DNA from: an uncultured Eubacteriales bacterium
GTDB taxonomy: Bacteria > Bacillota > Clostridia > Oscillospirales > CAG-272
Reading direction: 5' to 3'
Length of the DNA stretch: 64,000 nt
NCBI GenBank assembly: GCA_905201895.1
Contig: CAJKPX010000006.1
Location: 2,656 to 66,655, forward strand
How positions within the stretch are numbered: position 1 is the stretch's first letter; each line of letters begins with the position of its first letter. A model generated the notes under the pieces. It was not told the DNA's origin. It ran no database searches and saw nothing but the letters and a program-made list of their open reading frames with translations. Below, in pieces: positions 56,603 through 57,547 of this stretch. A program made the position numbers and the translations under genes.

Positions 56603-57547
56603 TCAGGGCAGCCTTGCGTATTCGGCATCCATGATCTGTCCGATGCGCTGCGCAATGGGACGCGGACGGTCATTGCACATGTATTCGGCAAACGCCTCGG
56701 CAATCAGCTCCTGCGTGGAGGTGGTTGCGTACTGCGAAAGCCCTGCTTGCACGTCATAGGCAGAGAGCGTTCTGACGTAATCAACCAACGAAAATTTTTC
56801 GGACAGACAGCAAAGATAGTCGATCAGGTGTCCGAGCTCGTGATAGACCACCGACTCGGGAGACCAGCACCCCTGCGGATGAAAGCCAGACGCCGCATCG
56901 CGGCGCAGACTGCTGACCAATTGGATATAAGCATAGCCTTCATAGTCATTTTCATCGAGCAGAACGGCATCGAACATCCCAAAGGCAAAGATCGCCATGG
57001 CGATATAGGAGTCCGAGCGCGACAGCATAGAGCCAATCAGATTGCGCATGAGCACACCGAGCCGACGCGCCACCGACTCCTCACAGATATACTGCAGAGC
57101 AAAATCGTGCAGAACCGAGGTGTCGCCACGCATCATACGCTCCATTGCCGCGCAGTAGCCTCGGGGTGAGCCGAGATAGCACATCTTGCTGCGCAGCTTG
57201 GGATACCGGTAGAGCACATTGACCACAACCTTGAGCACACGCTTGAGCCCATAGATATTGATATCGGCAAAATCGCATGCATCGCAGAGCGAATAGCTGC
57301 GGGCAATCTCCTCGAGCTGCCTGTAATTAGAGGCATTTTCAATTGCGTCGATAATTCGCTCTGCGCGGCAGCGCTTCAGATAGGAGCGAGAGAAGCGCGC
57401 GTTGAGCAGCTGCATCTGCTGCACCGTCAGCAAAAGCTCCGCCTTCTCTCCCCCAATGCCCTGAACCGTGAAGCGATAGGGGTGTGCAAGATCGTTGGCG
57501 TGCATCTGCACCGTCCAAGCATGCATATCTATACGTTCAGGTTGCAT
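56603..57547 (-). CDS. HExxH-motif protein, putative gluzincin-type Zn metallopeptidase (314 aa)
   Basis: YHELGHLID (codons at 56828-56842), then LSQYATTSTQELIAEAFAEY ~45 aa downstream. HExxH followed by a downstream Glu within an ExxAExF-type helix is reminiscent of anthrax-LF/MtfA-like minimal gluzincins. The start ATG overlaps the PP2C gene stop by 11 nt; an alternative ATG lies at 57526. Confidence 0.55.
   Translation of the reverse strand: MQPERIDMHAWTVQMHANDLAHPYRFTVQGIGGEKAELLLTVQQMQLLNARFSRSYLKRCRAERIIDAIENASNYRQLEEIARSYSLCDACDFADINIYGLKRVLKVVVNVLYRYPKLRSKMCYLGSPRGYCAAMERMMRGDTSVLHDFALQYICEESVARRLGVLMRNLIGSMLSRSDSYIAMAIFAFGMFDAVLLDENDYEGYAYIQLVSSLRRDAASGFHPQGCWSPESVVYHELGHLIDYLCCLSEKFSLVDYVRTLSAYDVQAGLSQYATTSTQELIAEAFAEYMCNDRPRPIAQRIGQIMDAEYARLP

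Follow-up and report, generated by a model that had tools for sequence, protein, structure and literature searches.

A conserved zinc-protease gene as candidate exchangeable output of a TerY-P-type vWA/kinase/PP2C operon in Clostridia

Introduction

What might a metallopeptidase do as the last gene of an operon that otherwise encodes two TerY-like vWA proteins, a Ser/Thr protein kinase and a PP2C phosphatase? This question is raised by a 64,000-nucleotide stretch of contig CAJKPX010000006.1 (positions 2,656 to 66,655; uncultured Eubacteriales bacterium, CAG-272 lineage), referred to below as the window, which contains the following gene:

56603..57547, minus strand: zincin peptidase gene (protein P0001, 314 amino acids), from the open reading frame (ORF) and its translation.

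An earlier reading made from the letters of the window alone (the sequence-only reading) had proposed that this ORF encodes a regulated metallopeptidase serving as an effector. Its sequence marks the product as a genuine and conserved zinc protease of the anthrax-lethal-factor/phage-head-protein type, with a fold of the class seen in the zincins of phage head proteins. We propose, with a probability of roughly 55%, that the peptidase is an exchangeable output or effector of the vWA/kinase/PP2C switch and that it would cut one or a few specific proteins once triggered.

Results and Discussion

A strictly conserved catalytic site

The evidence for a working enzyme lies in two segments of the protein:

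56828..56842, minus strand: HELGH (H236, E237, H240), putative zinc-binding and catalytic motif in helix 230–246, with D243 three residues on; from conservation and the predicted helix.
56684..56737, minus strand: S271–E288, an S-x-Y...E-x-x-x-E-x-x-x-E segment; from conservation, alignment to lethal factor and PPEP-1, and predicted helix 278–291.

The first lies within YHELGHLID (residues 235–243) and the second within SQYATTSTQELIAEAFAEY (residues 271–289). The sequence-only reading had put the second motif about 45 residues after the first, which is right for the Glu helix (E280 and E284 stand 44 and 48 residues past H236) and wrong for that motif itself, whose first residue comes 28 residues beyond the end of YHELGHLID.

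Homologs fell into 85 clusters (90% identity), the best at an E-value of 1e-197 and all from Clostridia-type gut and rumen assemblies, and an exhaustive search returned 1037 representatives at E ≤ 1e-3, 47 of them at E ≤ 1e-30. In 28 close homologs, down to 29% identity, H236, E237, G239, H240, S271, Y273, A283, E284 and E288 are invariant, with E280 (one Asp) and D243 each kept in 27 of the 28. H236, E237, H240, Y273, E280 and E284 are likewise 100% conserved in 35 phage relatives and in 45 stand-alone representatives, no two of which are more than 50% identical; for D243 the figure is about 97%. HELGH is unchanged in all 108 sequences (28 + 45 + 35) and lies inside predicted helix 230–246, while E280, E284 and E288 all fall within predicted helix 278–291 downstream of it. 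The sequence-only reading had staked its case beforehand on conservation of H236, E237, H240 and the downstream Glu, which held across these 28 + 45 + 35 sequences, and the gluzincin-type metallopeptidase that it proposed is upheld by this intact, strictly conserved catalytic set.

The AlphaFold2 model of the peptidase has a mean predicted local distance difference test score (pLDDT) of 91.7 and a predicted template-modeling score of 0.90, and in it a small sheet (residues 183–197) precedes helix 278–291. Based on alignment to lethal factor and PPEP, E280 would be the third zinc ligand, and Y273, seven residues ahead of it, would be the transition-state Tyr. In M34 enzymes the catalytic Tyr and the third zinc ligand stand at this spacing. 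Zinc would thus be held by H236, H240 and a helix Glu (E280, or E284), with E237 acting as general base and Y273 stabilizing the transition state.

Could the protein instead be a catalytically dead scaffold, a pseudo-protease adaptor between the PP2C and vWA proteins? The sub-threshold family scores described below would be compatible with such a role, in favor of which there is nothing specific. However, none of the catalytic or metal-binding positions varies even among deeply diverged relatives, a signature of selection for catalysis, and we find a dead scaffold hardly credible.

As had been claimed from the sequence, neither a signal peptide nor a transmembrane helix is present; the top 19-residue Kyte-Doolittle mean is 1.62, at residues 179–198. 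A transmembrane helix at these residues was considered and ruled out because they form two buried core beta strands in the model (pLDDT 92). The protein would accordingly be a cytoplasmic, catalytically competent zinc endopeptidase with an M34-like active site.

Linkage to the triad and an exchangeable fourth slot

The peptidase gene stands beside vWA, kinase and long-PP2C genes in 21 of the 22 loci examined, with the triad present as far as the contigs reach. These 21 comprise an initial set of 18 non-redundant loci and, in addition, L026, L028 and L030. The common gene order is vWA(1–4)-kinase-PP2C-peptidase; in L004, L019 and L030 it is peptidase-vWA...-kinase-PP2C. Because the linkage has outlasted rearrangement and persists in two gene orders, the functional tie to the vWA, kinase and PP2C genes suspected from the window is strongly supported. 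In the window the genes also overlap:

57537..57547, minus strand: 11-nucleotide overlap of peptidase start and PP2C stop, ATGCAACCTGA, from ORF coordinates.

Here the peptidase ATG occupies 57545–57547 and the stop codon of the upstream 724-amino-acid ORF 57537–57539. PP2C and peptidase ORFs overlap by 1–20 nucleotides in the window and in six of the seven other loci read, and the overlap with the PP2C stop suggests that peptidase and PP2C scaffold are made at a constant stoichiometry.

Two sister loci differ at the position after PP2C. In L027:7001-9505 a triad of the same branch is followed straight after the PP2C gene by a strong hairpin terminator, with no fourth gene, and the peptidase is therefore dispensable for the triad. 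In L029:8106-9644 the slot is occupied by a different ORF of at least 513 amino acids, ATGA-coupled to the PP2C gene of a triad consisting of vWA, vWA, kinase and a 702-amino-acid PP2C. The product of this ORF matched no Pfam family; by eye only, we noticed in it a ParB/sulfiredoxin-like VLDGMHRYAA motif. From L027 and L029, the fourth slot after PP2C is exchangeable. Because the same slot is empty or otherwise filled in sister loci, we suggest that the triad is a general switch for exchangeable effectors. Metagenomes scanned with the PP2C profile yielded for the most part classical triads of distant kinship, which served as a negative control, and only two loci of the Clostridia branch; among about 60 loci of classical soil-metagenome TerY-P triads (vWA-PP2C-kinase, with a short PP2C), none carries the peptidase.

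The same loci bear on the main rival explanation, namely that the enzyme is an internal processing protease that matures, activates or resets its own module by cutting the vWA proteins, the kinase repeats or the PP2C extension, the true effector then being the kinase or something else. The tight overlap of PP2C and peptidase ORFs would suit this role, as would the conserved ...IIKIIAASAS tail of the vWA proteins and the proposal that the phage relatives autoprocess their carrier proteins (PMC5512222), and the triads without a peptidase (L027 and the classical soil triads) indicate that the switch can work alone. Yet a module-internal protease would be expected throughout the branch, whereas L027 lacks one and the slot in L029 is taken by an unrelated gene, and the vWA tail may be merely the last helix of the vWA fold. 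We regard internal processing as unlikely but deserving of serious consideration.

Kinship with phage head-protein zincins

Profile limits and matches divide the peptidase into two parts:

56606..57346, minus strand: residues 68–314, zincin domain of the lethal-factor-like/MuF-C-terminal type, from PHROG 324, BFVD fold and ATLF matches.
57347..57547, minus strand: residues 1–67, clade-specific N-terminal extension absent from the phage relatives, from profile limits.

The N-terminal ~220 residues had been described as matching nothing recognizable. This did not hold: they are mostly peptidase domain, which matches the C-terminal domains of phage head-morphogenesis proteins, and only residues 1–67 are specific to the clade. 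PHROG 324 ("head morphogenesis") matches residues 169–311 (E 5e-14) at the C-terminal end of that profile. Positions ~65–70 to ~309 of the family profile align with the C-termini of 35 long representatives (at least 380 amino acids), and for this reason we treat residues ~68–314 as one peptidase domain. MuF or minor-capsid-2 seed regions match 22 of these 35, and phmmer comparison with long phage proteins gave E-values from 1e-27 to 1e-13. In the distant relatives sampled, the domain is C-terminal and Phage_Mu_F or Phage_min_cap2 is N-terminal, with some adding ADP-ribosyltransferase or reprolysin-like domains. Predicted viral structures in BFVD matched the model with probability 1.0 and E down to 5e-6; these entries are phage "minor capsid protein", "lethal factor"-annotated proteins and a MuF-like minor capsid protein. 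The N-terminal extension is modeled as three short strands and a helix, with R51 and R54 conserved.

By sequence and fold, the zincin of MuF/SPP1 gp7-like/minor capsid protein 2 proteins is thus the closest family. The two have in common HExxH, an Asp at +3, S-x-Y, an E...E...E helix and a His before the active-site helix, and a phage zincin clade bearing this His and Asp has been described (PMC5512222). The window protein differs in standing alone, whereas the phage zincin is fused to a virion protein; in its 67-residue N-terminal extension and C88, C91 and C246, which the phage clade lacks; and in being encoded beside vWA, kinase and PP2C genes in a bacterial chromosome rather than in a head-gene cluster. 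No phage gene was found near the peptidase gene in the window, and no MuF-type paralog in its own genome. Membership in the phage MuF-type zincin family is accordingly indicated by sequence but not by architecture. The zincin-like metallopeptidase is the commonest domain of phage and plasmid polyvalent proteins, for which either autoprocessing of these proteins or the role of an injected effector has been proposed (Iyer et al. 2017, PMC5512222), and a metallopeptidase domain occurs in about 20% of MuF toxins (Jamet et al. 2017, PMC5576092).

A quick maximum-likelihood tree separated a stand-alone clade (51 rows) from a phage-fused clade (47 rows) with 99% support in the Shimodaira–Hasegawa-like approximate likelihood ratio test (SH-aLRT). 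Being unrooted, this tree does not say whether the domain passed from phage to host or the other way. One way to read the kinship is that the stand-alone enzyme is a domesticated version of a MuF-packaged, injected phage zincin, now gated by a phospho-switch and maybe sharing targets with its phage counterpart or cutting phage head or polyvalent proteins. We give this scenario little credence, but were it true, the same protease family would act on both sides of the bacteria-phage conflict, and the stand-alone enzyme would be an immune effector of a kind so far undescribed for TerY-P systems, cutting proteins sequence-specifically under the control of phosphorylation. The kinship also ties a bacterial module to a common, unstudied phage head-protein zincin, and the substrate of one may inform that of the other.

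Homology to the C-terminal domains of phage head-morphogenesis proteins, together with one relative beside a phage serine recombinase without the triad, could alternatively mean that the gene is a phage-derived passenger, either a detached MuF-type head fragment or a prophage moron, with no functional tie to the triad. We consider this very improbable given that the stand-alone proteins form a separate clade (99% SH-aLRT) with their own N-terminal extension and Cys set, that triad linkage is kept in 21 of 22 loci and two gene orders, and that the window has no flanking phage structural genes and the genome no MuF-type paralog. Linkage and conservation data largely exclude both the passenger and the dead-scaffold explanations.

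Four cysteines, C88, C91, C227 and C246, are conserved in the stand-alone clade, and the positions of C88, C91 and C246 are hydrophobic in the phage relatives. Judging from the sequence pattern, they may make up a second metal site, or else act as a redox or "cysteine-switch" element.

Placement among curated peptidase families

The only Pfam match of P0001 is ATLF (E 0.047, 13.8 bits). ATLF is matched by 25 of the 28 family members at E ≤ 0.1 (best 1e-5) and is the top Pfam family for these 25; Peptidase_M90 (MtfA) comes second, with nine of the 28 and a best E of 2.8e-4. One phage relative scores 24.7 bits against ATLF. A search of PDB sequences with the peptidase as single query gave no match, and NCBIfam returned nothing for it. 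Compared with PDB sequences, the family profile found lethal factor (E 0.014) and PPEP-1/Zmp1 (E about 0.5) in an alignment that spans only ~65 residues and covers HExxH, the Tyr and the E-x-x-A-E-A-F helix column for column. Foldseek against the PDB gave PPEP-3 (E 0.7–1.2, probability 0.35–0.44, template-modeling score on the target 0.44–0.46) and lethal factor (E 0.75), all sub-significant, as the sole sensible entries among the fold matches.

In naming ATLF and MtfA/M90, the sequence-only reading was therefore in the right neighborhood (25 and nine of the 28 members, respectively). Its expectation that family and fold searches would name a gluzincin family was borne out in part: the weak matches point to ATLF and then to M90, but no curated cut-off was reached and no PDB fold match was significant. 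For these reasons formal M34 membership is not established.

What the window protein does share with M34/ATLF enzymes (lethal factor, PPEP-1/Zmp1, PPEP-3) is the active-site layout, HExGHxxD followed by a Tyr and an ExxAEAF-type helix, here as D243 behind HExxH, Y273 and E280-L-I-A-E284-A-F. Sequence-specific cleavage is typical of M34 enzymes. These are secreted toxins or adhesin-releasing proteases, whereas the window protein is predicted to be cytoplasmic and lies in a signaling operon. MtfA (Peptidase_M90, PF06167) is likewise a cytoplasmic, regulator-linked gluzincin, acting with the Mlc repressor. Its matches are weaker and rarer than those of ATLF (PF07737), and it shows no likeness in gene context to the window gene.

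A TerY-P-type switch with a long PP2C

The remaining genes of the module are as follows:

57537..59711, minus strand: PP2C phosphatase, 724 amino acids (domain 1–~300 and a ~420-residue helical C-terminal extension), from motifs and fold.
59708..61285, minus strand: Ser/Thr protein kinase, 525 amino acids, with ATGA overlap to the PP2C gene; Pfam Pkinase 6e-20.
61318..62019, minus strand: TerY-like vWA, 233 amino acids; weak Pfam VWA match, orthologs 58–70% identical in other loci.
62074..62772, minus strand: TerY-like vWA, 232 amino acids, first gene after the promoter; Pfam VWA_4 6e-11, orthologs 75–79% identical.
62981..63847, minus strand: third vWA gene, more divergent in sequence and located upstream of the operon promoter; Pfam VWA_4 5e-9.

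A Pfam scan of the PP2C gene product gave no match. Nevertheless, the motifs NEDA, ADGLGG, WAGDSR, SDG and DDAT are unchanged in 18 orthologs, and the AlphaFold2 model of residues 1–320 (pLDDT 93.2) has 119 PDB matches at E ≤ 1e-3, all of them PPM/PP2C, with PppA, tPphA, PstP and Stp1 best at about 1e-10. The invariant motifs and the 119 fold matches confirm that the upstream gene encodes a PP2C, as had been supposed.

Anantharaman, Iyer and Aravind in 2012 reportedly defined the TerY-P triad as a TerY-like vWA with a PP2C and a Ser/Thr kinase, and Gao et al. in 2020 are said to have found a stand-alone anti-phage TerY-P. The window operon holds all three components, and its PP2C is homologous to those of the classical metagenome triads, such that by composition it is a TerY-P-type triad. 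It departs from the classical form in several respects. The gene order is vWA-kinase-PP2C in this branch, as opposed to the usual vWA-PP2C-kinase; the PP2C has the ~420-residue helical extension, whereas the classical triad PP2C is short; and the branch has one to four vWA paralogs and a fourth, translationally coupled zincin gene. The C-terminus of the kinase carries repeats, in contrast to the OB fold or zinc ribbon of TerY-P kinases in the literature (PMC11090510). In the comparison made, to which the founding 2012 paper did not belong, no paper was found linking a TerY-P triad with a metallopeptidase, and a 2025 "component modularity" preprint has nothing on vWA/PP2C modules.

In L004:8091-10979, where the peptidase gene is first in the operon, a long PP2C (962 amino acids) has a vWA domain fused to its C-terminus. 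This fusion is a hint of binding between PP2C and vWA proteins and an argument that the proteins of the module assemble.

The vWA paralogs (window 61318–62772, L001–L019) share a conserved tail, ...D(I/V)xFxxIIKIIAASAS..., even at 40–50% overall identity. This tail could be the final helix of the vWA fold or else a peptide used for docking or cleavage.

Proposed role as a switch-controlled effector

In the reading that we favor, the peptidase would be the fourth component of a Clostridia-specific TerY-P-like branch made up of one to four vWA proteins, a kinase and a long PP2C. The switch would keep the protease silent until a trigger is sensed, the likeliest being infection by a phage or the entry of some other invading element, and would then release or activate it for cleavage of one or few specific proteins. 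A functional precedent would be Lit of the E. coli prophage e14, a cytoplasmic HExxH zinc protease and abortive-infection effector that cuts EF-Tu once upon a phage-peptide trigger, aborting T4 infection. No sequence relationship between Lit and the window protein was detected, and Lit works alone, whereas the window protease is encoded with a kinase/phosphatase/vWA switch. The idea from the sequence-only reading of an abortive-infection effector under kinase/phosphatase or vWA control remains plausible, with the defense neighbors described below and the exchangeable slot both fitting it.

TerY-P triads are widespread and one version is anti-phage, but the minimal triad has no obvious effector; the protease-coupled branch offers a concrete, mutable TerY-P output to test.

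Several observations weigh against this proposal. GC (guanine plus cytosine) content around the gene is unremarkable in a composition check and gives no island signal, and the flanks in the window are ordinary genes, such as the GDSL/CE2 esterase downstream. A full-length relative of 297 amino acids and 30% identity lies on a viral contig (L109:6043-8822) with no vWA, kinase or PP2C gene in view; it directly follows a large serine recombinase, near a LexA/S24-like repressor. As for the enzyme itself, the 13.8 bits of P0001 do not reach the ATLF gathering threshold of 27.4 bits, and a full-model Foldseek search of the PDB gave no match at E ≤ 0.001, returning mostly helical-bundle noise (e.g. 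G-protein-coupled receptors). PADLOC models matched neither the peptidase nor the vWA proteins nor the PP2C; the kinase matches only the mad6, MkoA and PD-T4-6 kinase models. The effector could also be the kinase itself, by analogy with abortive infection of the Stk2 type, and the protease would then have an accessory role.

Distribution and genomic neighborhood

Its own genome has one copy of the peptidase gene, and a sample of 200 further genomes from the same family, three of them belonging to the same genus, yielded none. The chromosomal position of the module varies among genomes, and four of the nine loci with annotated flanks have defense-island neighbors. These include AbiH and an Eco57I-type methyltransferase at one locus; nSTAND3-LRR, TIR-LRR, DUF4231 and an FtsH-like double-AAA protease at one locus; the same FtsH-like protein with a methyltransferase/ResIII pair at another; and a TIR_2 neighbor at one. 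One locus has a TerD neighbor. The distribution of the module is accessory and leans toward defense islands.

This distribution bears on a further explanation, in which the output has nothing to do with defense and a stress- or metal-sensing phospho-switch, the role originally proposed for TerY-P in ter clusters, directs the protease to degrade a regulator or damaged proteins. In its favor are the adjoining TerD gene at one locus, the ordinary metabolic or secreted-enzyme genes that flank the module in the window and in L001, and the early association of TerY-P triads with tellurite/stress loci, as summarized in PMC11090510. Set against these are the sporadic occurrence (0 of 200 same-family genomes), the varying positions and the recurrence of defense genes as neighbors. 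An accessory conflict module therefore fits better than housekeeping signaling, and we hold a non-defense output to be quite improbable.

In two unrelated genomes (L023:15273-19341 and L024:11433-15689) the same gene pair lies 0.5–4.5 kilobases past the module. It encodes a ~950–1000-amino-acid double-AAA protein with Peptidase_M41 (FtsH-like) and a ~400-amino-acid protein, and resembles the "FtsH-ternary" conflict systems (PMC7159879).

A small HTH_26/HTH_3 protein of 95–123 amino acids flanks the module in L023:5133-5420, L024:4398-4769 and L026:9757-10080, with none obvious in the window. It may be a dedicated regulator.

Proteins matching only residues 220–308 of the peptidase (the HExxH-to-Glu-helix part) at 35–38% identity, with no triad gene nearby, are encoded at 10001–10312 of L021 and L022, which come from actinobacterial (Sphaerisporangium) genomes. 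They are remote members of the family in a different context.

Operon boundaries in the window

The operon is delimited by two further features:

62834..62862, minus strand: consensus sigma-70-type promoter of the five-gene operon, TTGACA-17-TATAAT, from a promoter scan.
56531..56578, minus strand: intrinsic terminator closing the operon (hairpin 56540–56578 plus U-tract), from folding energy.

Between them the genes follow in the order vWA (62074–62772), vWA (61318–62019), kinase (59708–61285), PP2C (57537–59711) and peptidase. The plus-strand frame at 56603–57547 is closed, placing the gene on the minus strand. The terminator hairpin (56540–56578) has a centroid energy of −24.7 kcal/mol (z = −2.6) and is followed by UCAUUUUUUG; a consensus terminator scan skipped it because its loop exceeds 8 nucleotides. 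Directly after the terminator comes the promoter of the next gene, a perfect extended −10 promoter (TTGACA-17-TG-TATAAT, 56519–56491), and that gene encodes a lipoprotein-like GDSL/CE2 esterase (55200–56519). The peptidase is thus the last gene of the operon, since a terminator and then a promoter for the next gene follow it. The sequence-only reading had described a 314-amino-acid ORF as the terminal gene ahead of the operon terminator, its start overlapping the PP2C stop, and in each of these points, as in the reality of the ORF, it was correct.

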